Below, piece by piece: positions 2,208 to 34,021 of a stretch of 56,337 nucleotides of DNA; the stretch's first letter is position 1; the number at the start of each line of letters is the position of its first letter. The notes under the pieces were generated by a model. That model was not told where the DNA came from, ran no database searches, and saw only the letters and a list, made by a program, of their open reading frames with translations. The stretch lies in the NCBI GenBank assembly GCA_033763015.1, contig JANRLA010000060.1:1-56337 (forward strand). Direction: 5' to 3'. The translations under genes were made by a program, and so were the position numbers. This stretch comes from Bacteroidia bacterium. Lineage in GTDB: Bacteria > Bacteroidota > Bacteroidia > J057 > JANRLA01.

Positions 2208-4406
2208 ATGTTCGAATCGCGCATTGCCGATCTCGGCTCCCCAGCCCGTACCACTGGCCCCAACGGTACGCTTCGGGAAAACCCCGTGTCCGACATCTTC
2301 GGCACCCGCGTCTTTGGCCTTGCGGCCATGAAAGAGTACCTCACCGACCGCGCCTACAAGGCCGTCGTCGAGGCCATTCGCTTCAGCCAGAACATTTCGT
2401 TCGAGGTTTCTGAGAATGTGGCCAAGGGCATGAAAAAGTGGGCCATGGACAATGGGGCCACCCACTTTACCCACTGGTTCCAGCCCCTAACGGGCCTCAG
2501 CGCCGAGAAGCACGACGCGTTCTACAAGCCCAGCTTCAACCTCGAGCTCCAGGGCATTGAGAGCCTTTCGGGCCAGCAGCTCATTCAGCAGGAGCCCGAC
2601 GCTTCGTCGTTCCCCTCGGGCGGGCTGCGCAGCACCGACGAAGCCCGTGGCTACACGGTGTGGGACCCCTCGTCGTTTGCCTTCATCCAAGAAATCACCA
2701 CCGGCCGGGTGCTGTGCATCCCCTCGGTCTTCATCAGCTACACCGGCGAAAGCCTCGACTACAAAGCGCCGCTTCTCAAGTCGATTGGTGCCATCAACCA
2801 GGCCGTAGGCAAAACCCTAGAGCTGCTGGGCGACCCCGGCCGCAGCGTAGTACCTACCCTGGGCTGGGAACAGGAGTATTTTGTCATTGACCAAAGCCTG
2901 GCCCGCAAGCGCCCCGACATCCTGCTCAGCGGCCGGGCCCTCTTTGGGCGTATGAGCGCCAAGGGGCAAGAGAAAAACGAGTTCTACTTCGGCTCGATCC
3001 CCGAGCGGGTGCAGCAGTTCATGAACGACTTCGAGAAGCGTTCGCTCGAAATGGGCATACCCCTCAGCTCACGTCACAACGAGGTGGCACCCCACCAATA
3101 CGAGTGCGCCCCGATGTTCGAGGAGGTCAACAGCGCCATTGACCACAACGTGCTGCTCATGAACGTGATGCGCGACACGGCCCGCCAGCACGGCCTGGAG
3201 GTGCTCTTCCACGAAAAGCCTTTCCGCGGCGTAAACGGTTCGGGCAAGCACAGCAACTGGAGCCTTGCAACCGCCCGCGACGGCGAAAACCTGCTTGACC
3301 CCGGCAAAGAGCCCCACAAGAACCTGCGGTTCCTCACGGTGTTCATCAACGTCATCTGCGCGGTAAATAAGCACGCGCACCTGCTACGGGCGGGCATTGC
3401 CAGTTCGGGCAACGACCACCGGCTCGGCCAGCACGAGGCCCCGCCGGCCATCATCTCGGTGTTTACCGGCCAGCAGCTAGGCAAGGTGCTCGACCACTTC
3501 AAGACTAAGGGCCTGAAGGGCACGCCCGACCTGCCGACCCCCGAGCTGGAAAAAGACATCCCCCGCATCCCCACGTTCCTGCTCGACAACACCGACCGTA
3601 ACCGTACCTCGCCCTTCCCCTTTACGGGCAACAAGTTCGAGTTCCGGGCCGTGGGCGCCAGTCACAACCCCTCGTTCGTGCTCACGGTGCTGCAAACCTG
3701 CGTTGCAGAACAGTTCACCCAGTTCAACGCCAAAGTCGAGGCCCTAATCGAGAAAAAGACCAAGCCCGAAGAGGCCGTGGTGAAAGTGCTGCAGGAAGAA
3801 CTCAAGGCCAACGAGCGCATCATCTTCAACGGCGACGGCTACAGCCACGAGTGGGAGGAAGAAGCCGCCCGCCGGGGCCTGCCCAACATCAAGGGTACGC
3901 CTAACGCCGCCGAGCAGCTGCTCGACCCGGCGGCTATTGAGATGTTTGTGCGCCACAAAATCTTCACCCCCGACGAGGTGAAGGCCCGGGTGACCATCAT
4001 CCTGGAGAACTACATCGCAGACATGGCCTGCGAAAACAAGCTGGTCGAAGAGCTGGCCTACAGCCACATCCTGCCCGCAGCCACCGACCACCAGCTCAAG
4101 CTCGTCGAGCTCTACGAGGGCTACGCCGAAATGGGCCTCGACAAGCCCGCTAAGCGCGTAAAAGAAGAAGCCGAACGCGTAGCCAAGCTAGCCGAACGCA
4201 TCTACAGCCAACTGGAAAAGCTGGCCAAAGTGCGCGAGAAAGCTGACAAGCTGACCGAGGTGGCCGATATCGCACGTGTGTACTACGACCAAAGCCTGCC
4301 CACGACCCTCGAAATCCGCGAAGCGGCCGACGAACTCGAACTGGTGGTCGACGACCAACTCTGGCGCCTGCCGAAGTACCGCGAGCTGCTCTTGGTCCGC
4401 AGCTAA
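2208..4406 (+). CDS. glnA: Glutamine synthetase type III
   Basis: HFTHWFQPLTG.SAEKHD, EPDASSFPSGGLR, EQEYF, HNEVAP, HEKPF..NGSGKH, DRNRTSPF.FTGNKFEFR and LPKYRELL motifs. Confidence 0.95.
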   Translation: MFESRIADLGSPARTTGPNGTLRENPVSDIFGTRVFGLAAMKEYLTDRAYKAVVEAIRFSQNISFEVSENVAKGMKKWAMDNGATHFTHWFQPLTGLSAEKHDAFYKPSFNLELQGIESLSGQQLIQQEPDASSFPSGGLRSTDEARGYTVWDPSSFAFIQEITTGRVLCIPSVFISYTGESLDYKAPLLKSIGAINQAVGKTLELLGDPGRSVVPTLGWEQEYFVIDQSLARKRPDILLSGRALFGRMSAKGQEKNEFYFGSIPERVQQFMNDFEKRSLEMGIPLSSRHNEVAPHQYECAPMFEEVNSAIDHNVLLMNVMRDTARQHGLEVLFHEKPFRGVNGSGKHSNWSLATARDGENLLDPGKEPHKNLRFLTVFINVICAVNKHAHLLRAGIASSGNDHRLGQHEAPPAIISVFTGQQLGKVLDHFKTKGLKGTPDLPTPELEKDIPRIPTFLLDNTDRNRTSPFPFTGNKFEFRAVGASHNPSFVLTVLQTCVAEQFTQFNAKVEALIEKKTKPEEAVVKVLQEELKANERIIFNGDGYSHEWEEEAARRGLPNIKGTPNAAEQLLDPAAIEMFVRHKIFTPDEVKARVTIILENYIADMACENKLVEELAYSHILPAATDHQLKLVELYEGYAEMGLDKPAKRVKEEAERVAKLAERIYSQLEKLAKVREKADKLTEVADIARVYYDQSLPTTLEIREAADELELVVDDQLWRLPKYRELLLVRS

Positions 4407-10055: not shown

Positions 10056-11012
10056 CTATGCGCTGCGCTCCGCCACTGGGATGTTAATCAGATACTCGTA
10101 AACTACTTTAGAGCCTTCACTTCCAAAGATGCTGATCAAATTATTTTCAGTAACACCAAATATAGCATTGAATTCGTTATCAGTCACTTTGAACTCGCCC
10201 GTCATGAGTGAATCCTTATACAAGTTCAAAAATATTTTCTCGCGAATCGAGAGATCGCTTTTTATATAATTGTAGTAAAATTTAGTGTCAATATCCTTTT
10301 CAACAGTCCTAATGTGGTATATCAAATATTTAAGTTGCTCTAGGTAAGAACCCAAAGCTAATAAGTCAATATTTCTAGAATGCTTATCAAAATTTTCGCC
10401 AAACATTCCACTGGCACCGGATGGATTTTTTATATTGTAGTTGCCTAATACAAGGTCAACAAACTGCATAATAAATGGCTTTTTCATTAAAGGTTGTTGG
10501 TAAGTTTCACTATGTTGGATAAACATTAGCCTATGCTTAAGCTCTAGCAATCGACTATGCATCTTAAAAAAGGTGCTCTCGAACAATTGGATTTGGCTCG
10601 TCTGTACCTGAAGTGCCAATTGCTCCTTCTGGCCTTTTAATTCCTCACGGGTATCTTCTAGTTCTTGGCGCTGCAGCTCTAGTTGACGTCGGTTCTGAAT
10701 AAGCTCTGCACGTTGCAGCAGCACTTGCTGCTTTTGGCCTAGAAATGCAACGTAGATGAGGACAAGGCCAGAGCCGCTCCACAACGTTCCTGCGGCACCC
10801 AACAGAAAAGCGCCCAAATCCTTAGAGTTTGGCCCACTCAGGTAGACTACGATAGCAGAAACAAAAACCAGGGCTCCCACAATTAAAACACCAAAAGCTC
10901 CATTGCGCCATCCGACTGTTTCGTTCTCAATGTCATTAGCCTTTAGGTTAAGGGCATGCGCCTCTTTCTCTAAATGACCTACATCAACTTTTCCTACGGA
11001 ATCTTCTTTCAT
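10056..11012 (-). CDS. AT-rich membrane protein resembling putative phage abortive-infection (putAbiC-like) proteins
   Basis: Two N-terminal TM helices, a coiled coil LELQRQELEDTREELKGQKEQL, QLFESTFF.M and a late Y..YIKS.LS..E segment, recalled as typical of that family; much more AT-rich than the flanks. Confidence 0.6.
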   Translation of the reverse strand: MKEDSVGKVDVGHLEKEAHALNLKANDIENETVGWRNGAFGVLIVGALVFVSAIVVYLSGPNSKDLGAFLLGAAGTLWSGSGLVLIYVAFLGQKQQVLLQRAELIQNRRQLELQRQELEDTREELKGQKEQLALQVQTSQIQLFESTFFKMHSRLLELKHRLMFIQHSETYQQPLMKKPFIMQFVDLVLGNYNIKNPSGASGMFGENFDKHSRNIDLLALGSYLEQLKYLIYHIRTVEKDIDTKFYYNYIKSDLSIREKIFLNLYKDSLMTGEFKVTDNEFNAIFGVTENNLISIFGSEGSKVVYEYLINIPVAERSA

Positions 11013-11048: not shown

Positions 11049-11723
11049 TCACACCACCAACAAGTTACCGGCGACGAGTTTGGAGAGTTGGAGGTCTTTG
11101 CCGGCGATGCGCACTAGGCGGCTATCGTCGAAGGGCAGGTGGTCGAGGACGGTGAGGGGCGTGTTGATGACGAGCCCGACGCGGTCGAGGTACTGCAGGA
11201 ACTCGGGGGTGTGGAGGGTGACGCGGGCGAGGGTGACCTCGGTGCCGGGGGGTACGTCGGCGAGGGGGCGGGTGTTGCGGGCCTCGATTTCGCCGTGTTC
11301 GTTGGGGAGGGGGTCGCCGTGGGGGTCGAACTTGGGGTAGCCGAGGAACTCGTCGAGCTTTTGGATGAGCTCTGGGCTGCGGATGTGCTCGAGCTGCTCG
11401 GCGGTGTCGTGGACTTGGTCCCAGCGGAAGCGGAGTTTTTCGACGAGGAAGACCTCCCAGAGGCGGTGTTTGCGGACGATGCGCAGGGCGATGCGTCGGC
11501 CCTCGGGGCTGAGGCTGACGCCGCGGTAGGGCTGGTAGCGGAGGTAGCCTTTGTCGCCGAGGCGCTTGATCATGTCGGTGACGGAGGCGGGGGTGGTTTT
11601 GAGCTCGGCGGAGAGTGCGGTGGTGGAGACGGAGGCGTCGGGGCCAGCGTCGGCGGAGAGCTTGAGCACGGCCTTGAGGTAGTCCTCTTCGGTGCTGGTG
11701 GGCAGGTGGGGGGCCGCGCTCAT
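11049..11723 (-). CDS. DtxR/MntR family metal-dependent transcriptional regulator with FeoA domain
   Basis: EEDYLKA, ASVTDM, RKHRLWEVFL, AEQLEH and DPHGDP motifs. Confidence 0.95.
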   Translation of the reverse strand: MSAAPHLPTSTEEDYLKAVLKLSADAGPDASVSTTALSAELKTTPASVTDMIKRLGDKGYLRYQPYRGVSLSPEGRRIALRIVRKHRLWEVFLVEKLRFRWDQVHDTAEQLEHIRSPELIQKLDEFLGYPKFDPHGDPLPNEHGEIEARNTRPLADVPPGTEVTLARVTLHTPEFLQYLDRVGLVINTPLTVLDHLPFDDSRLVRIAGKDLQLSKLVAGNLLVV

Positions 11724-11804: not shown

Positions 11805-11812
11805 TAGTTTTG
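11805..11812 (+). promoter_or_regulatory. Bacteroidota -7 promoter box upstream of miaB
   Basis: TAGTTTTG about 22 nt before GTG 11835. Confidence 0.6.
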
Positions 11813-11834: not shown

Positions 11835-13232
11835 GTGAGTCAGAACACGCAAAAGGTATTTACGCCCTTGGCCGATGCCACGCCCTACACCCAACCGGGC
11901 CTGCCCGGCGCGCGGGGCCTGGCCTACATAGAGACCTACGGGTGCCAGATGAACTTCTCGGACACCGAGATTGTGGCGGCCAGCCTGGCCGAGCTGGGCT
12001 ACGGCTTCACGCACGACGAAGCAGCGGCCGACGTGGTGCTGCTCAACACGTGCGCCATCCGCGAGAACGCCGAACAGAAAGTGTGGCACCGGCTGGCGCA
12101 ACTCAAGGGCCGCAAGCGCCGCAACCCCGACCTCATTGTGGGCCTGTTGGGCTGCATGGCCGAGCGGCTGAAGAAGCAGGTGCTCGAAGACGCGCCGGTG
12201 GTAGACCTGGTGGTGGGCCCCGACGCCTACCGCGACCTGCCCACCCTGCTGGCCGCCGCCGAGGGCGGGCAAAAGGCCGTGAACGTGCTGCTGAGCCGCG
12301 AAGAAACCTACGCCGACCTGGCGCCTATCCGCCTGAATACCAACGGGGTGAGCGCCTTTGTGAGCATCATGCGGGGGTGCGACAACATGTGCGCCTTCTG
12401 TGTGGTGCCCTTTACCCGGGGCCGGGAACGGAGCCGCGACGTGGCGAGCATCGTGCGCGAGTGTGAGCAGCTGGTGGCCGACGGCTACCGCGAGGTAACC
12501 CTGCTGGGCCAGAACGTAGACAGCTACCGCCATGAGGGCACCGACTTTGCCGACCTCCTGGCCCGTGTGGCCGAGGTATCGCCCCTACTGCGGGTACGCT
12601 TCAGCACCAGCCACCCCAAAGACCTGACCGAGCGCGTGGCCCAGGCCCTGGCGGCCTACCCCAACGTGTGCAACTTCATCCACCTGCCGGTGCAGAGTGG
12701 CAGCAGCCGCATCCTGGAGAAAATGAACCGTGGCTACACCCGCGACTGGTACCTGGACCGGCTGGCGATGATCCGCAGCTACGTACCCGAGGTGGGCCTG
12801 AGCACGGACATTATCAGCGGCTATTGCAGCGAAACCGAAGAGGACCACCAGGCGACCCTGAGCCTGATGGCCGAGGCGGGCTTCGACTCGGCGTTTATGT
12901 TTGCCTACAGCGAGCGGCCCGGCACGCTGGCAGCCCGCAAGTACCCCGATGATGTACCGGCCGAGGTAAAGCAGCGCCGCCTGGCGGAAATCATCGAGCT
13001 GCAGGGGCAGCTGTCGGTGGCCAGCAACCGGCGCGAAGTGGGCCGGGTGCACACGGTGCTGGTGGAAGGCACGAGCAAGCGCAGCGTGGCCGACCTCTGC
13101 GGGCGCACCGATACAAACAAGCTGGTGGTCTTTGCAACGCCCGACGGCGTAGGCCCCGGCGACTACGTGCAGGTACAGATTACCGAAACGACCCGGGCGA
13201 CGTTGATAGGCTCAATTGTGGAGCGACCATGA
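11835..13232 (+). CDS. miaB: tRNA-2-methylthio-N6-dimethylallyladenosine synthase
   Basis: [23 protein letters not shown], radical [18 protein letters not shown] and a C-terminal TRAM domain. Confidence 0.96.
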
Positions 13233-14290
13233 TAACACGACTTCATGTACAGAATTTTAAGGGCATTGCAGACCTGCGGCTGAACGGCTTTACAGGACTG
13301 AATGTATTGCTCGGCGTAAATGACACGGGCAAAACTGGGCTGCTCAAGCTCATGTATGCGTTGTCGAAAAGCATTCGGTCATATTCCTTGGCTCAAAAAA
13401 CGAGCAAGGAAAGTTTTACTACTATTCTTGAAGACAAGCTAAAGCACACGTTTAAGCCACGCATTTCCGGTATAAATGAACTCATTAGTTCTGGCGAAAC
13501 CGAAGCTAGTATCGAGGCAGGGTTTGACTTACTTGGAAGCAGAATAGATCCTCTTAGCGTTCATATCATTTCTGATAAAAAGCGGAAAACAACAGAACTA
13601 AGTTCACCCCAGGCAATACCGCTGGTACATGAAGATTTCGATTCGGTTTTTCTACCGCCTAAGGAAGTGCTGTCCATCCACCGAGATATAATCTATTCCA
13701 GAGAAAAAGGAGAACTCGATGGTTTTGACGATACGTATTATGATCTAGCCAAAGCTTTGGAGCGCTCCACAACGAAAGGTAGAACTCATGATGCATTGGT
13801 GACGGTGATAAACAAGCTTGAAAAATTATTCACCCAAACAAAAGTCTACTATGATGAAGTTGCCAGAGACTTTTACCTAGAGAAGAAAGGCACACGGTAT
13901 TCGATAACGATGGCTGCGGAGGGTATACGCAAAATCGGGTTGCTTACCACTTTAATCCGTAACCGCGAACTCTACAGGGATGGGCATCTATTCGTGGATG
14001 AGCCTGAAACCACGTTGCATCCAGTAGCTATACGGTCTTTCATGGAAATGTTGCTGGAAATGACCAAAGCAAACATTCAGGTATTTCTAGCAACTCATAA
14101 CTATTTCGTCTTAAAAGAACTGGAAATTCTTGCTAAAACGTCTAAAATACCAGTCATGTGCTATTCCCTCATGAAAGATACTGATGCCATATCAGTAGAA
14201 AGCTCTGATCTACGTGAGGCTATCCCCGACAACGAGATTATCGAGGAATCCATACGGCTCTTGCAAGCGGACTTAAGGACCAAAATTTAG
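13229..14290 (+). CDS. ABC/AAA_21-type (AbiEii/OLD-like) ATPase, AT-rich
   Basis: N-terminal I..L.VQNFKGI, Walker A GVNDTGKT, signature-like AEGIRK, Walker B LFVDEPE, H-loop ATHNYF; no TM segments. Confidence 0.85.
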
Positions 14291-14295
14291 TACCG

Positions 14296-14832
14296 ATGCC
14301 CTATAACGATAGGCCCGATTTCTGGAGTCGCTTCGAAGACTGCCAAGCGTACCAGGCCATTAGTGGCTACGGGCACAAAGAGATGGACTACATGTATTGG
14401 GATAGTCATACCAAAGTGCTTTACCTGATTGAAGAATCGGGACTAGTACATGGAGAAAAGGACTTATCGGATGACTGTCAACTCGAAAAAGAACTATTTG
14501 AAGTTGTGTTTAAGGCGTATTCAGGGTTTCTGATGCTGTATAGTTCGTTGACAGGTCAATCCACTGCTATGAATTCGCTCTCATCGTGCTTGCCGAATGC
14601 GTTCAAGCGGAGCAGTAGTGGCTGGGGCACATTTAAGGTTAAGCTCTATTTCATCTATACACTGCCTGCCGATACATCCATTCTACTCGCCTTTAGTGCG
14701 TTTAAAGACAAGGCAGACAAAAAACTCGAAACCTTGAAACGGTGTTTTGACGTCATAACGTCCTGTACCTTAATGGACAAGTACTCTGCTAAGCAGTCGT
14801 TACCACAAGGGCTAGTGCCTACCGATTCGTAG
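14296..14832 (+). CDS. Hypothetical protein, ATPase partner with a PD-(D/E)xK-like motif
   Basis: 178-aa ORF filling the gap; AT-rich like the ATPase; MDYMYWDSHTKVLYLIEES resembles the D-x(n)-[LI]IE-x-K core with K replaced by S. Confidence 0.65.
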   Translation: MPYNDRPDFWSRFEDCQAYQAISGYGHKEMDYMYWDSHTKVLYLIEESGLVHGEKDLSDDCQLEKELFEVVFKAYSGFLMLYSSLTGQSTAMNSLSSCLPNAFKRSSSGWGTFKVKLYFIYTLPADTSILLAFSAFKDKADKKLETLKRCFDVITSCTLMDKYSAKQSLPQGLVPTDS

Positions 14833-14834
14833 TC

Positions 14835-16093
<1,259 letters not shown>

Positions 16094-16097
<4 letters not shown>

Positions 16098-16643: not shown

Positions 16644-19600
16644 ATGAACCCGCTATACCTCTACCGAAAGGTGCGCAAAGAGGCGCTCGATGCCGAAGAG
16701 GCCACCTGGCTTGCCAACGAGCTCAAGGTGCACCCCTACGCGCACGTGCTGCACCTGATCCGGGCGGGCCACCTGCAGCACACCCAGGAAGCCACAGCCG
16801 GCAGTGCGCGGCAACTTGCCGCCCTGTACGCCCCCAGCCGACAACGCCTGGCGCTGTACCTGGACGAAAAGCTGGCCCGTAAGCTGGAAGCGGCCACCGA
16901 AAGCGTAAAAAAACAGGCCTCTGCCGCGGGGAGCACTAAGCCCAAGCCCGCCCCAGAGGCCCCCAAGGCCCCGGCCGCGCCCGTGGTAGAGGCCCCAGCC
17001 CCCGAGGCCAAGGCACCGCTCGCACCCCAGCCCCCAGCCGCGCCCGAGGTCAAGCCCGCCCCAGAGGTAGCCACGCCCAAGGCCCAGGAACGCCCCGAGC
17101 CGGTAGCCCCGGCCACCCCCCCAGCGCCTGCCCCCGAAGCGAAGCCCGAGGCCCAGGAGACACCCGCCCCCAAACCACCGGTAGCCGGTGGGCTGAAGAT
17201 TACGCCCGTGAAGTCGGCCGAGGTTGGGCACTTGAGCCCACCGCCGGTAGCGCCCCCCAAGGTGGAGCTCACTACGCCTTCGCAAAGCCCTACCCTTCGG
17301 CCCGAGGGCGACCCATTGCCCGAAACGAAAGCCCAGACCACCGGCGGGGAAAAAACGGCCCCCACCATTACCCTGACCGAAGTGCCCGCCCCGGTACTTA
17401 ACCAGGGGCTGCAAACCATGCTGCAGGTGCGCACCGGCATGTACCTGCCGCTGGTCGACAAAATTGGGCGCGAACTGGCGGCCTACAAGGCAGACCTACC
17501 GGCAGTAGCCTCTAGCCCAGCGCCTGCTAGCCCCCCCGAAACGGTCGCCCGGGTCGAACCACCGGCCGTAGAGGCGCCAGCCCCCACCCCGGTGCCCGAG
17601 GTAGTAGCCGAGGCCCAAGCCGAACCCGTTGTAACCCAGGCCCCGCCGGTAGCCGAAGCACCGGTGGCTGAGCCCCCGAAGGTGGAAGCGGAGGTACCCG
17701 ATCTGCCCGCCACAGTGCACCTACCGGTAGCCCCTACCGAAACCCCAGCGGTGAGCGAGCTACCCACCGACGAAGCCGACGCGCCCAACCCCGACGACCC
17801 CCAGAAGCAAAAACGCGAACGCATCAGCCTAGAGCAGCTGGCCCAGGAGCAGCAGCAGCAGGTGGAACAGGGGGTAGACGACCTGAAGCACAACCTGCTG
17901 CGGCTAATCCAGGCCCAGATGAGTGGTATGCCGATGCTCACGGTTGAGGTACCGCCCGAAACGACAAAGCCTGCAGCGAAGCCTGACCACATCGCGGCCA
18001 TCACCGAAATCGTGGAGAAGGCCAAAACACTGCACGAAACGACCCGTGTAGTGGTAGACCCGCCCGCAGCTAAACTGCCCGAGCCGAAGCCCGAAGTACC
18101 CAAACCCACCGAGAAAGAAAAGCCGGTAGAGGGTGAGGCCTTGAAGGGCACAGCCGAGAGCATGCTGCGCTTCAGGAGCCCCTCGTTCGACGAAAAGCCG
18201 CTGCAGCTCAACGTTGAGGGCATCGACCGGCGCAAAGCAAAAGCAACTGAAACGCCTGTTACCGAGGCGGCAGCGCCAGCACCCCTCGTAGAGTCACCCG
18301 TGCCACCGGTTACCGAAACACCTTCGGAGGCTATACCGCCAGTGGCCGAACTGGCCCCAACACCGAAGCCCGAACCCCCCGCACCGACGCCTGCCGAAGT
18401 GACCGCTGGACTGGGTGGCGAGGCATCGTTCAAGCGGTTCAAGTCGTTGGAGGACACCCAGGCCACGACAGGTGCGCAGCTGCCCACACCCAAGGTTGAG
18501 CTCGTACCCGCCCCAGAGGCGATTGCGCCGCCAGCTACCCCGAGCGAGGCACCTGCAGCCGAAAACCTGAAAGGCAAGGTGACGACCGAGTCGTTCAACC
18601 GGTTTGTGGCGCCCAAGTTTGACCGGCGCTTTGGGATGATCAACGACCCGTTGCCACCCCAGCCCGAAGCCCCTGCGCAGACCTTGAACCCGATACCGGT
18701 GGTTGCGCTGCCGCCCTTGGAGTCTGACCCAGCCCTGGGCTTGCCGCACACCTCGGCACCGGTAGCCGAAGTGCCGACGGACACGCCGTTACCCCCCAGC
18801 GTGAACCCGGTGTACGACACCCGGCGCGAGGACACAGAGGTACAGCCCGTATCTACCCACCTGGAAGAGCCCCTGGCCGAGCCCATCCCACCGGTGCGCA
18901 AGCCCGCCCCCCTCGGGGTTGACGAGCCCACCGCCAAAGACGGCGGTAAGGCCAGCTTTGGGCGGTTTGTACAGCCCACCTTTGGCCTGGAAACCGTACA
19001 CGCCCAGCCCGAGACCGTACCGCAGCCCGAAGCCACGGCCGAGCCCATCGGCCCATCTGAAACGCCCCAGACGCCCCTACCCCCGGCGGCAGAGGTTCCG
19101 CCTGCGGCGCCGACTGCGCTGGGTGCGCCCATTGTATCGGAATCGATGCGGCGGTTTGTGCCCTTCGAGCCCTCCGGCACGCCGGAACCCACCGCCAAAC
19201 CCGAGGCCACCGTACCCGAAGAAGCCCCCAAGGTGACAAGCCTTAAGGTGCCACCGCCCACGGGTAAGGTTTCGGTGGGGATGGACCGATTCGTTGACCT
19301 GGAGCCCAGCCCGAAACTGGAAGCCCCGGCCAGCAGCGATACCCCACCGGCTACCCCACTACCCGAGGCGCCCCCAGCTACCGCCGAGGCACCGCCAGCC
19401 CCCGAGCCCACCGGTGAACAAACCTTTACCTACCGGCACGGCGAGCTGGAGCTGCAAATCGTGCTGCGGCCCGAACAGCTCAAGTTTTTTGCCGCCGACC
19501 CCACCACACTCTTTGCCCAGGCGGCCACCGAGGTGCTGGCACCGGCGCCCGAACCTGAGGACAGCCCCGAGGCCCCCGAAACCCCGGTTACCTTCAGCCG

Positions 19601-20558
19601 CACGACGGTCGTTGAAGCCCCGAGCGCCCAGTTGGGCGACATGGACCCCGAGGTGATTGGCAAAATCAAAGCCGCCATCGACGAAGAGACCTGGCAGCAG
19701 CTTGAAGAAGCCTTTTTGCGGCCACCGGTGGTCTCTGAAGCCGGCAGCGAGCCCGCTACCCAGGTAGCGCCCAAGCCTGTGGGCCTGGCTCCGCTCAACG
19801 CCTCGCTCACCATCGCCAGCCTGGAGGTAAACCCCGAGCTGCTGGAGCCAGCCGCCCCCGCGTTTGGCGAGGTGATTGAGCAGCAGGAGGACGCCGAAGA
19901 GGACTTCATCCGCAAGATTGGGCTGGAGTCCTCGTACGCCAACCCCGAACTGCCCGAAGACCAGCACCTGGCGGCCGAGCTCCCCTACGAGTTGGGTGGC
20001 GCCGGGGGCGAATACACCGCCCCGCAAACCGAGCCGGAGCTAAACGACCTACTGCGCATCAAAAACCTGCCGCACCCCTCCCAGATTACCCTGCAGACCA
20101 TCCAGCAGAAGTTCCTCGAGAAGATGATCACCTCGATGACCGAGGGCGTGGTGAAAATACCCGCCAGCGGCCCCGAAGAACCGACTATCGTGGCGGCCAC
20201 ACCCCCCGTTGCCGACACGGTTACCGACACGCCTGCCGACACGCCTTCCGATACACCCGCGGGCAATACCGTAGACGAAGCGCTGGCAAAGTTCAATGCC
20301 CTTGAGCCGGTCATCTCGCAGAAAATCAGCTCACTGAAGCAGGCCCCACCAGCGCCTGAGAGCGAAGAGCCCCTGCCGGCCCACCCCGACACGCTGAAAA
20401 ACCCGCTGGAAGAAACGGGCGAAGTGAGCGAAACCCTGGCTGAGCTGCTGGTGAAACAGGGCAAGCTCACGGCGGCGAAGGCGATTTACTTCCAGCTGAG
20501 CATGAAACATCCTGAAAAAAGCGCGTACTTTGCGGCCCGAATTGCCGACTTGGGCTAG
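16644..20558 (+). CDS. Very long Pro/Ala/Glu-rich protein with a conserved TPR-like C-terminus
   Basis: N-terminal HPY...AALYAPSRQRL and C-terminal SETLAELLVKQG...IY.QL..KHPEKSAYFA resemble the conserved hypothetical found between lptE and secG; ~1100 aa low-complexity centre; host-like codon usage. Confidence 0.8.
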   Translation: MNPLYLYRKVRKEALDAEEATWLANELKVHPYAHVLHLIRAGHLQHTQEATAGSARQLAALYAPSRQRLALYLDEKLARKLEAATESVKKQASAAGSTKPKPAPEAPKAPAAPVVEAPAPEAKAPLAPQPPAAPEVKPAPEVATPKAQERPEPVAPATPPAPAPEAKPEAQETPAPKPPVAGGLKITPVKSAEVGHLSPPPVAPPKVELTTPSQSPTLRPEGDPLPETKAQTTGGEKTAPTITLTEVPAPVLNQGLQTMLQVRTGMYLPLVDKIGRELAAYKADLPAVASSPAPASPPETVARVEPPAVEAPAPTPVPEVVAEAQAEPVVTQAPPVAEAPVAEPPKVEAEVPDLPATVHLPVAPTETPAVSELPTDEADAPNPDDPQKQKRERISLEQLAQEQQQQVEQGVDDLKHNLLRLIQAQMSGMPMLTVEVPPETTKPAAKPDHIAAITEIVEKAKTLHETTRVVVDPPAAKLPEPKPEVPKPTEKEKPVEGEALKGTAESMLRFRSPSFDEKPLQLNVEGIDRRKAKATETPVTEAAAPAPLVESPVPPVTETPSEAIPPVAELAPTPKPEPPAPTPAEVTAGLGGEASFKRFKSLEDTQATTGAQLPTPKVELVPAPEAIAPPATPSEAPAAENLKGKVTTESFNRFVAPKFDRRFGMINDPLPPQPEAPAQTLNPIPVVALPPLESDPALGLPHTSAPVAEVPTDTPLPPSVNPVYDTRREDTEVQPVSTHLEEPLAEPIPPVRKPAPLGVDEPTAKDGGKASFGRFVQPTFGLETVHAQPETVPQPEATAEPIGPSETPQTPLPPAAEVPPAAPTALGAPIVSESMRRFVPFEPSGTPEPTAKPEATVPEEAPKVTSLKVPPPTGKVSVGMDRFVDLEPSPKLEAPASSDTPPATPLPEAPPATAEAPPAPEPTGEQTFTYRHGELELQIVLRPEQLKFFAADPTTLFAQAATEVLAPAPEPEDSPEAPETPVTFSRTTVVEAPSAQLGDMDPEVIGKIKAAIDEETWQQLEEAFLRPPVVSEAGSEPATQVAPKPVGLAPLNASLTIASLEVNPELLEPAAPAFGEVIEQQEDAEEDFIRKIGLESSYANPELPEDQHLAAELPYELGGAGGEYTAPQTEPELNDLLRIKNLPHPSQITLQTIQQKFLEKMITSMTEGVVKIPASGPEEPTIVAATPPVADTVTDTPADTPSDTPAGNTVDEALAKFNALEPVISQKISSLKQAPPAPESEEPLPAHPDTLKNPLEETGEVSETLAELLVKQGKLTAAKAIYFQLSMKHPEKSAYFAARIADLG

Positions 20559-32974: not shown

Positions 32975-33011
32975 ACACAGAAAAGGGCCCCACTGGGGCC
33001 CTTTTCTGTGT
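32975..33011. terminator. Bidirectional rho-independent terminator
   Basis: Perfect inverted repeat acacagaaaagggcccc-act-ggggcccttttctgtgt between convergent genes. Confidence 0.9.
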
Positions 33012-33023
33012 TTTTAACCTGGG

Positions 33024-33161
33024 TTAGAGGTTGAATACCACCCCAAGGTTGAAGGGGACGAGGGTAAAGTCGTCGGAGAAATCGAACAGAAGCGTGGCCT
33101 CGAGGGCAAGCTTGTCGCTGAGGTAATAGCGCGCACCACCGCCCAGGCTTGTAGGCCAAAC
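33024..33161 (-). pseudogene. C-terminal remnant of an outer-membrane beta-barrel gene
   Basis: Manual translation SLGGGARYYLSDKLALEATLLFDFSDDFTLVPFNLGVVFNL*; in-frame TAG at 33162-33164 upstream; no signal peptide. Confidence 0.65.
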
Positions 33162-33199
33162 CTACACGGATGCGGTAGATGCCATGTTCTAGCTAACGA

Positions 33200-33907
33200 C
33201 TACTTGGTGCCGGGGCCCAGCAGCAGTACAACGCCGAAGCTGAGGCTGTTGAAACTGAAGCTTGGGAAGAAGAATGTTTCGACACGATTCTCAACCCTCC
33301 CTATCTGATCAGTAACTGACTGATCTAGGGAAGAAAAATAGCTTTCCTGTACTGTAGAGTTCGAATAGTCCAGGCTAAAAAGAATAAAGCTAGCGGTAGC
33401 CAAGAAGCGCTCCGAAATTTTAACCTGCAGCCCCGGACGGATGCTAATACCAGCACCGTGTGAAGTTGTACTCCTTTCGAAGGCCTTGCTGCCCTGCGAA
33501 AAAAAATTTGTAAACTCATTTTTACGATAGGTGTAGGCTAGATCCGTTTCGGAGTAGACGTTTACCGCTTTCCACTCCGTATAGGTTGTTCGGAAGGAGG
33601 GCCCAATATTAAGCCCCAACTGGTTGGTTACTTCGTCGTCTGAGCCCGATGAGTAGGTTCGGTCCTGGGAAGAACCGAATACAAATATGGAACCGCCCCA
33701 GGCATTTTTTTGAGTGATCTGTTTGAACAGGCTTATGCCTACGGTACCCGAAAGGGAATTAAAACCGGTAGTTGAACCTGTGATCCCGCCGTCGGAATCG
33801 GAATCAGCGGAAAAACTGCCGGACAGTAGCCACTGGCCGGGCTCGATTTGGGCGGTTGCCGTGAGGCACAGGCCGCAGCAGAGGAATAGGTTATACAGTG
33901 CTTTCAT
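33200..33907 (-). CDS. Outer-membrane beta-barrel protein (paralogue A, more AT-rich)
   Basis: Signal peptide, QIEPGQWLLSGSF, RPGLQVK and terminal SLSFGVVLLLG. Confidence 0.75.
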   Translation of the reverse strand: MKALYNLFLCCGLCLTATAQIEPGQWLLSGSFSADSDSDGGITGSTTGFNSLSGTVGISLFKQITQKNAWGGSIFVFGSSQDRTYSSGSDDEVTNQLGLNIGPSFRTTYTEWKAVNVYSETDLAYTYRKNEFTNFFSQGSKAFERSTTSHGAGISIRPGLQVKISERFLATASFILFSLDYSNSTVQESYFSSLDQSVTDQIGRVENRVETFFFPSFSFNSLSFGVVLLLGPGTK

Positions 33908-33915
33908 GTGAAAAG

Positions 33916-33958
33916 TGTTAAAAGTCCGGCCTCAAGATGGCCACACGGACTTTTAACA
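33916..33958. repeat. 13 bp inverted repeat with 17 bp spacer upstream of OMP paralogue A
   Basis: tgttaaaagtccg ... cggacttttaaca. Confidence 0.7.
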
Positions 33959-34021
33959 GTTGTCAATGGCTTCCTAACGTGCCCTGGTTAACAGGTGCTT
34001 AAGAAACTGGCCACCTTGGGC

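Follow-up and report, generated by a model that had tools for sequence, protein, structure and literature searches.

We propose that two adjacent genes from a Bacteroidia bacterium make up an anti-phage cassette of HEC-02 type that was acquired horizontally, and that this cassette was inserted at the junction between miaB, which encodes a tRNA methylthiotransferase, and the gene for a sigma-54-dependent transcriptional activator. The genes lie in a contig of 56,337 nt (JANRLA010000060.1 from assembly GCA_033763015.1), and we refer to this entire stretch as the window. The first gene of the pair encodes an ATPase of the ABC (ATP-binding cassette) type and the second encodes a small protein that we call the partner. 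We consider this identity and origin to be very probable; the estimate excludes the activity of this copy. Payne, Hughes, Fineran and Jackson (bioRxiv 10.1101/2024.01.29.577857) described nine "Hma-embedded candidates", and HEC-02 is among them; in the accessible parts of that preprint it consists of an ABC ATPase and a NERD-like PD-(D/E)xK protein and is included in PADLOC-DB v2. A preliminary description of this DNA had proposed a horizontally acquired two-gene module of a defence type, with an ABC-type ATPase and a small partner with a restriction-endonuclease fold, in a conserved junction, and our results agree. It had also called the module uncharacterised, which was wrong: both proteins match profiles for HEC-02, a system that was tested in E. 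coli. The pair is this known system, and its copy in the window, which has ExS instead of ExK in the partner's active site, is a variant of HEC-02 and not a new kind of system. In annotations, the pair should be labelled as a HEC-02-type defence system.

The ATPase matches the PADLOC profile for HEC-02A over nearly its full length (PDLC04214, E = 1e-92, with residues 1-351 aligned to positions 1-335 of 338) and also matches PDLC04213 (E = 3.3e-70). The next-best PADLOC system for the ATPase is AbiLi (E = 2.2e-22), which is weaker than HEC-02A by about 70 orders of magnitude. The Pfam matches of the ATPase are generic only (AAA_15 and AAA_21; E = 9.7e-17 for AAA_21), and neither protein of the pair has a match above the cut-offs in NCBIfam. 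In an alignment of 77 ATPases, the window's protein keeps all 41 of the invariant columns, including G29, N31, D32 and K35 of Walker A; E231 and G232; D257 and E258; and H290 of the H-loop, so that the signature-like and Walker B motifs are intact as well. All of the motifs that the preliminary description had pointed to in this protein fall in these invariant columns. The ATPase also keeps 86 of the 113 highly conserved columns of the family. Its AlphaFold2 (AF2) model has a mean predicted local distance difference test score (pLDDT) of 87.4 and a predicted template modelling score (pTM) of 0.89, and the nearest solved folds are PtuA (from Septu and retron I-A), Rad50, and the heads of SMC proteins (E = 4e-14 to 3e-11). 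A profile search of PDB sequences with the ATPase agrees with these fold matches; HEC-02A itself has no solved structure. At E ≤ 1e-20, we found at least 808 relatives of the ATPase; one of them (P0133) is 82% identical, and all of the others are at most 43% identical.

The partner matches a single PADLOC family, HEC-02B (PDLC04224, E = 3.8e-13, with residues 12-164 aligned to positions 20-167 of 182), so the earlier view that it does not look like an HNH or TOPRIM effector holds. It has no match in Pfam. The NERD family (PF08378) matches 6 of the 132 members of the partner family, with a best E of 0.024, and none of these is the window's partner; feature-based matches of the partner to NERD-named clusters in a protein atlas (0.88) are a lead only. 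When the partner was used as a lone query, a word-index search found 2 near-identical proteins and phmmer found 13 relatives among 1.84 billion representatives; a profile found 226. Prediction of a complex of the ATPase and the partner (with alignments A3 and A2) gave scores of 0.01 and 0.00, compared to a mark of 0.32, and this result bears neither for nor against binding. As a side observation on the profiles, PDLC04146, which is labelled as HEC-02B, matches ATPases (E = 1e-42 to 1e-47), and PDLC04145, which is labelled as HEC-02A, has a weak match to a partner (P0018, E = 5.6e-5). In the PADLOC library, one sub-type of HEC-02 seems to carry its A and B labels the wrong way round.

We view the pair as a horizontal insertion because its composition is foreign, because it is rare in this order, and because miaB abuts the activator in relatives. 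The fraction of G and C (GC) is 0.41-0.46 over the pair and 0.61-0.68 in the flanks, and the drop coincides with the pair. Across the module (1604 nt), the GC content is 0.437, compared to a genome mean of 0.623 (standard deviation 0.045, for segments of the same size), and just 52 of the 6505 segments of 1604 nt from the 2.84-Mb assembly are as low in GC as the module. At third codon positions (GC3), the GC content is 0.44 for the ATPase and 0.53 for the partner, versus 0.858 for miaB (whose overall GC content is 0.657) and 0.83 for the activator. The partner family is present in 3 of the 78 genomes from the window's order, with four copies in total, each of which is preceded by a gene for HEC-02A.

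We found orthologues of the activator in 24 of the 25 relatives from the same order that we searched. These are 53-64% identical to the window's activator in near-full-length matches, and up to 75% identical only for short partial matches. None of the 24 loci has an insert, and in 20 of them, miaB is directly 5' of the activator (the exceptions are L010, L016, L021 and L028). The gap between miaB and the activator is -4 nt in six loci (with the sequence ATGA), -1 nt in two, and 4 to 46 nt in ten; the values for two further loci are script artefacts and are not counted. The preliminary description had considered that the pair might turn out to be in the same position in relatives and to have host-like composition, and neither is the case. 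Since these relatives share no rank below the order with the window's bacterium, they do not narrow the age of the insertion.

In the window, the TGA stop codon of miaB and the ATG of the ATPase share the sequence ATGA (a 4-nt overlap), the ATPase and the partner are separated by 5 nt, and the TAG of the partner is 2 nt from the ATG of the activator. This layout, and the two AT-rich, non-host genes within it, are just as the preliminary description gave them. Apart from the ATPase and the partner, our list of open reading frames (ORFs) has no long ORF between miaB and the activator. The C-terminus of miaB is intact, as its alignment extends to residue 461-464 of 465 in relatives. The junction that received the cassette is among the tightest in the region, and the cassette mimics its coupling.

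Both junctions are spanned by contigs that were assembled independently from public runs. The left junction is covered by record 4 from run X1 (12892-13286) and by record 11 from run X2 (13010-13535); the right junction is covered by record 7 from X1 (14670-15529) and by record 19 from run X3 (13681-14880). These three runs are from two studies, and X1 and X2 are possibly from the window's own source sample. Record 19 from X3, which is from the second study, has 13 differences in 1200 nt (98.9% identity). Since contigs span both junctions, and one of them is from a second study, the arrangement is not an assembly chimera. Among the 15 of 28 contig joints that were listed, none skips the module as expected for an empty site. 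We also observed a contig depth of over 400, together with numerous joints and loose contig ends, at 15034-15621, over the conserved AAA+ core of the activator. This pile-up is not a feature of the locus, as it arises because contigs from other organisms in the metagenomes match the conserved domain.

The preliminary description saw no signs of mobility, and neither did we. A repeat search found no terminal inverted or direct repeats at the borders of the module beyond chance-sized matches; there are no tRNA genes in positions 1-30000; and our ORF list has no integrase-sized ORF in the neighbourhood. We also considered CATG (13228-13231 and 14833-14836) as a target-site duplication, but we gave it no weight, as three of the four bases belong to the two start codons. 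The locus is a clean example of a defence cassette positioned with single-base precision between two tightly coupled housekeeping genes, and no mobility gene is visible.

The relatives of the pair show a similar genomic habit. Among GTDB species genomes, at least 561 of the 600 pattern-matching stretches that were listed encode a relative of the ATPase. (The window's ATPase alone, as a query of genome contigs, found no relative; a query with the alignment did find relatives.) The 80 GTDB loci that we kept are mostly from Bacteroidota, and the others include Leptospiraceae, cyanobacteria, Myxococcota, Campylobacterales, Bacillota, and Gammaproteobacteria. In 72 of these 80 loci, a gene for HEC-02B is immediately 3' of the ATPase on the same strand, and several of the eight exceptions are at the ends of contigs. 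The pairing of A and then B is thus conserved across many phyla. In 69 other HEC-02 loci (from L038-L117), the GC content of the module is below that of the flanks by a median of 0.066, and it is lower by over 0.05 in 43 of the 69. The median GC content in these 69 loci is 0.336 for modules and 0.400 for flanks, and the GC content of the host flanks spans 0.29 to 0.69. The contrast in the window, of about -0.2, is extreme among HEC-02 loci.

The neighbours of HEC-02 are mostly housekeeping genes and not defence islands, as judged by Pfam matches for 129 flanking ORFs from 21 other HEC-02 loci. Examples include alaS, pheT, clpB, recA, chorismate synthase, nuo genes, and enzymes for sugar nucleotides. 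Mobile or defence-like genes (Fic, DUF4365, HNH, PDDEXK_2, IS200-type Y1_Tnp, YhcG, RhuM, and DUF2130) are only scattered among them. In seven HEC-02 loci, the pair is co-oriented with both neighbours and within 100 nt of both, and these neighbours are ordinary genes; for example, the pair lies between obg-PAP2 and UDP-glucose dehydrogenase, or between CMD and 3-methyladenine glycosylase-polA. So, the embedding of the pair in the window is a sharp example of a recurring habit of HEC-02 and not a unique event. Separately, in a record from an Arcicella metagenome-assembled genome (L081), an RloB-like gene (2443-3120; PF13707, E = 2.9e-44) lies two genes 5' of the HEC-02 pair, which suggests a second defence module of the ATPase type near the pair in that organism.

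The AF2 model of the partner (pLDDT 86.4, pTM 0.84) has a strand-strand-helix arrangement, in which D31 precedes a strand (32-36), E46 and S48 lie in the next strand (41-49), and K73 lies in a long helix (60-86). In a comparison of this model to the PDB with Foldseek, the list of weak matches is dominated by PD-(D/E)xK nucleases, with cap-snatching endonucleases among them. A structure search that is independent of Foldseek gave Upx (Z = 7.0), the cleavage domain of FokI (Z = 6.6, with a root-mean-square deviation of 3.0 over 114 aligned residues), CdiA-CT (Z = 6.1), and N.BspD6I (Z = 5.9), followed by Cdn1, BstEII, and Can2. A sequence profile of the partner family had no matches to PDB chains at E up to 10. 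We assign the partner to the restriction-endonuclease-like (PD-(D/E)xK) core fold with moderate support, because of the topology, the conserved acidic pair, and the consistent list of nucleases, rather than because of one strong match.

The most unusual feature of the locus is in the partner's active site, where ExK has become ExS. The partner's motif is M30-D31 ... L44-I45-E46-E47-S48. (The preliminary description had reported both the motif, as MDY...LIEES, and the change from E-x-K to E-x-S; the motif and the change are present, and the spacer is one residue longer than it was written.) D31, E46, and K73 are invariant in all 132 aligned partners and in all 72 of the independent partners from the GTDB loci. 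Position 76 is aspartate in 125 of the 132 partners and is serine in the window. Only the window's partner and two others (P0001 and P0002) have serine at both 48 and 76, and P0007 has T48 and S76. Judging from these alignments, the window's partner belongs to a tiny clade, with three known sequences, in which ExK has become ExS.

Two observations concern how these positions vary. In alignment A2, the window's clade and P0007 have lost both K48 and D76, and other sequences have lost one only; among the 72 GTDB partners, 17 have D76 replaced by histidine and keep K48. Positions 48 and 76 may be a coupled pair of residues. In a quick tree of the 132 partners, the window's clade is on a very long branch within a divergent group of 12 sequences (Shimodaira-Hasegawa approximate likelihood ratio test, 88). 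K48 was lost in 7 of these 12, all of which keep D31, E46, and K73, and all 120 sequences of the main group have a lysine at this position. The tree is from a quick search and has long branches, and it does not separate a single loss of K48 from repeated losses.

Several points count against our view of the pair. Other partners that we scanned score from 1.1e-11 to 7.7e-63 against the HEC-02B profiles, and given this listed range, the window's partner is both the weakest match to HEC-02B and the most divergent HEC-02B that we scanned. The Foldseek comparison gave no match at E ≤ 1e-3, and all of the structural matches from the other search are below the caution line of Z = 8. The partner keeps just 15 of the 30 columns that are conserved at 90% or more in its family. 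The position of the ExK lysine, which is S48 in the window, is lysine in 125 of the 132 partners and in all 72 of the GTDB partners, so the (D/E/Q)xK signature that is given for HEC-02B in the accessible text of the preprint (10.1101/2024.01.29.577857) is absent. In WonB, which is the nuclease of the WonAB system that we compare to HEC-02 below, the available text reports that the substitution K71A abolishes both defence and toxicity (PMC12137116). We counted K71 by eye in the Vibrio cholerae row of a supplementary alignment, as far as it is accessible, and it is the lysine of E69-L-K71. By analogy with WonB, a serine at the ExK position should be damaging.

These points raise the alternative that the cassette is decaying or inactive: on this view, the effector no longer has its catalytic lysine, and the pair has been kept only because its deletion from an essential operon would be risky. 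The losses of K48 and D76 (both to serine) at two near-invariant positions, the essential ExK lysine of WonB, and the low number of conserved columns in the partner all fit with decay. So do the changes in the partner portion of the X3 copy, with 3 non-synonymous versus 2 synonymous differences. (Across 13681-14832, the X3 copy has 6 synonymous and 6 non-synonymous differences from the window and no stop codons.) However, both ORFs are full-length, without stops or frameshifts, in three versions of the pair: the window, the X3 copy, and P0133 with P0002, which are 82% and 78% identical to the window's ATPase and partner. The ATPase's invariant columns are untouched, the partner retains the metal-binding residues D31 and E46 as well as the invariant K73, and the loss of K48 recurs in a subgroup that still holds these three residues. 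Furthermore, among 126 other pairs of HEC-02 loci whose ATPases are 79-85% identical, the median identity of the partners is 63% (5th to 95th percentile, 55-73%), so the partner's conservation relative to the ATPase exceeds that of 95% of comparable HEC-02 pairs. The 78% identity of the partner where 63% is usual, the intact ORFs, and the retention of D31, E46, and K73 indicate constraint rather than decay, although this argument is from one pair of sequences and to that extent is another point against our view. Overall, we consider decay of the cassette to be unlikely.

As to what the window's partner now does, our expectation is evenly balanced as to whether it remains a nuclease and relies on K73, the invariant lysine of the helix. 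That it is an altered or non-catalytic effector seems rather unlikely, and we hold it to be just as doubtful that it lost its function. In cap-snatching endonucleases, the catalytic lysine is on the helix after the third strand. By analogy with these enzymes, we tentatively suggest, as a possibility that we do not favour, that in HEC-02B it is the helix lysine (K73) and not the ExK lysine that is the indispensable catalytic residue, and that the Ser48 clade is a selectively maintained, active variant. As part of this same tentative suggestion, the Ser48 clade would perhaps have a changed substrate or metal geometry, and K48 and D76, which disappear together, would be a coupled pair in the second shell. 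For HEC-02, the Ser48 clade amounts to a natural experiment with the active site: both acidic residues and the helix lysine remain, the ExK lysine is gone, and the protein looks constrained.

The preliminary description also offered a toxin-antitoxin system, for which we found no specific support. If the pair belonged to the AbiE or type IV toxin-antitoxin modules, then it would act as an addiction element and thereby secure its own insertion. Pfam describes AAA_21, which the ATPase matches, as "putative AbiEii toxin"; the two genes are tightly coupled, at 5 nt apart; and the partner from WonAB is toxic on its own when overproduced, according to the available text (PMC12137116). But the ATPase's best match is HEC-02A, by 70 orders of magnitude, and not an Abi toxin, and the partner has no match to a DNA-binding or antitoxin family in Pfam, NCBIfam, or PADLOC. 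Also, as far as the accessible parts of these sources go, the authors' tests of WonAB argue against a simple toxin-antitoxin relation, with toxicity that needed an active ATPase (PMC12137116), and HEC-02 was validated as a phage defence system (10.1101/2024.01.29.577857). We consider a toxin-antitoxin module to be quite improbable. We think that it is extremely unlikely that the pair is a native part of the operon with a housekeeping role tied to miaB or the activator, as the perfect embedding, with start and stop codons that overlap or abut, is outweighed by the pair's absence from the junction in 24 of 24 relatives' loci, its presence in only 3 of 78 genomes of the order, its low GC3 relative to its neighbours (0.44 and 0.53 versus 0.83-0.86), and the unrelated genes that adjoin homologous pairs in other genomes.

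If the pair is a HEC-02 cassette as we propose, then the ABC ATPase would be the presumed sensor and regulator. Like PtuA, Rad50, and WonA, it would probably form a nucleotide-sandwich dimer, and it would sense a cue from infection. Binding or hydrolysis of ATP might then license or stabilise the partner with its PD-(D/E)xK fold, and the licensed partner would cut nucleic acid and stop the infection. By analogy with WonAB, the outcome is possibly abortive growth arrest.

The pair is probably expressed by read-through from the miaB promoter, because the cassette has no recognisable promoter or terminator and because of the 4-nt overlap and the 2-nt gap at its ends. The arrangement, as read from the sequence, is consistent with use of the host operon's transcription; a search for RNA runs that contain this stretch listed none. 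No terminator-like site was found in the module, and on its + strand there is one sigma-70-like match, at 9 of 12 positions. The motif TAnnTTTG is the Bacteroidota-type -7 promoter motif; there are no matches to it on the + strand within 13229-14834, and there is a match upstream of miaB (Table 1). The window has 12 matches to this motif, versus 13.45 expected by chance, so the match upstream of miaB is weak on its own. As tentatively as we suggest a role for K73, a HEC-02 cassette without a promoter of its own, between translationally coupled essential genes, would also point to a mode of insertion for defence genes with no visible mobility gene.

Table 1. The HEC-02 pair, its neighbours, and the candidate promoter. 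Positions are those of the window.
Feature	Positions	Strand	Evidence or remark
Candidate promoter for the whole string of genes, TAGTTTTG	11805..11812	+	Match to TAnnTTTG, 23 nt 5' of the miaB start
miaB-type tRNA methylthiotransferase	11835..13232	+	Pfam UPF0004, Radical_SAM, TRAM; upstream host gene
HEC-02A-type ABC ATPase, 353 aa	13229..14290	+	PADLOC PDLC04214; Pfam AAA_15, AAA_21
HEC-02B-like partner, 178 aa	14296..14832	+	PADLOC PDLC04224; no Pfam family
Sigma-54-dependent transcriptional activator	14835..16097	+	Pfam Sigma54_activat (E = 2.6e-66), AAA_lid_14, HTH_8; downstream host gene

We also note some other features of the window. About 2 kb upstream of the pair is a second AT-rich ORF that looks foreign (10056-11012 on the - strand, 318 amino acids, with a GC content of 0.41 and a GC3 of 0.43), which adjoins a gene for a DtxR/MntR-type repressor (11049-11723). 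This ORF has no match in Pfam, NCBIfam, or PADLOC. In a feature search of the protein atlas, it matches clusters of PF16872 (putAbiC, a putative abortive-infection protein) at 0.95, and the ten best matches agree; the atlas model has template modelling (TM) scores of 0.53 and 0.60 to a phage cluster. Pfam gives no support for putAbiC even at E up to 10. This ORF may be a second, independent defence gene. A further dip in GC content, to 0.50 versus about 0.62, is at 33001-34000. Finally, 3' of the gene that was named lptE in the preliminary description, there is an ORF of 1304 amino acids (16644-20558 on the + strand) that is rich in proline, alanine, glutamate, and threonine and has low-complexity stretches.

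Among other known systems, we rejected PARIS, as the AriA profiles match only the C-terminal part of the ATPase (E = 3.6e-19) and the partner has no match to AriB. AbiL and PD-T4-4 resemble the pair in that both are two-gene defence systems with an ATPase and a partner, and their profiles do match the ATPase (AbiLi at E = 2.2e-22 over nearly the full protein, and PD-T4-4_A at E = 1.7e-13). These scores are far below that of HEC-02A, and the partner matches neither AbiLii, even at E ≤ 0.1, nor PD-T4-4_B. Septu, along with the PtuAB of retron I-A, is closer in structure: the nearest solved folds to the model of the ATPase are PtuA chains (9n6b, 9n69, 8ee4, 8sux, and 9o4a; E = 4e-14 to 2e-12), and in both systems an ABC ATPase scaffold controls a separate small nuclease. 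However, the match to the PtuA profile is both weak and partial (E = 7.8e-11), and whereas PtuB is an HNH nuclease, the partner has no match to PtuB or HNH profiles, so we rejected Septu as well.

WonAB, from the WASA-1 prophage of Vibrio cholerae, is more similar in its architecture and presumably in its logic. According to the available text, it pairs an OLD-type ABC ATPase with a small downstream nuclease that is a variant of PD-(D/E)xK, with both genes needed; WonB alone is toxic when overproduced, toxicity needed an active ATPase, and the outcome is that translation stops while genomic DNA remains intact (Nat Microbiol 2025, PMC12137116). The core of WonB, D ... (I/V)ELK, is as in canonical HEC-02B. 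Unlike the window's partner, WonB has and needs the ExK lysine; also, WonB is about 140 amino acids and the Walker A context of its ATPase differs from that of HEC-02A, so that by eye only, and from the accessible sequences, WonAB looks like a different family. The accessible text of two articles does not state a link between WonAB and HEC-02 ("HEC-02" has 0 occurrences in PMC12137116 and "HEC" has 0 in PMC12409358).

The closest comparison is to HEC-02 itself. In the accessible parts of the preprint, one representative was expressed in E. coli and lowered plaque formation by orders of magnitude for at least two phages, with both genes needed, and active-site mutants are not among the results there (10.1101/2024.01.29.577857). 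Our literature search found no mechanistic study of HEC-02 beyond this preprint from 2024. The window's pair differs from HEC-02 in that its partner lacks both the lysine of (D/E/Q)xK, with S48 instead, and D76, and in that its surroundings are a housekeeping operon and not an Hma or BREX locus. In the other respects that we compared, the two are alike: both families are present in the same order, adjacent and co-oriented, with sizes of about 355 and 180 amino acids; the pair is embedded between other genes; and the window's ATPase keeps all of its catalytic motifs.

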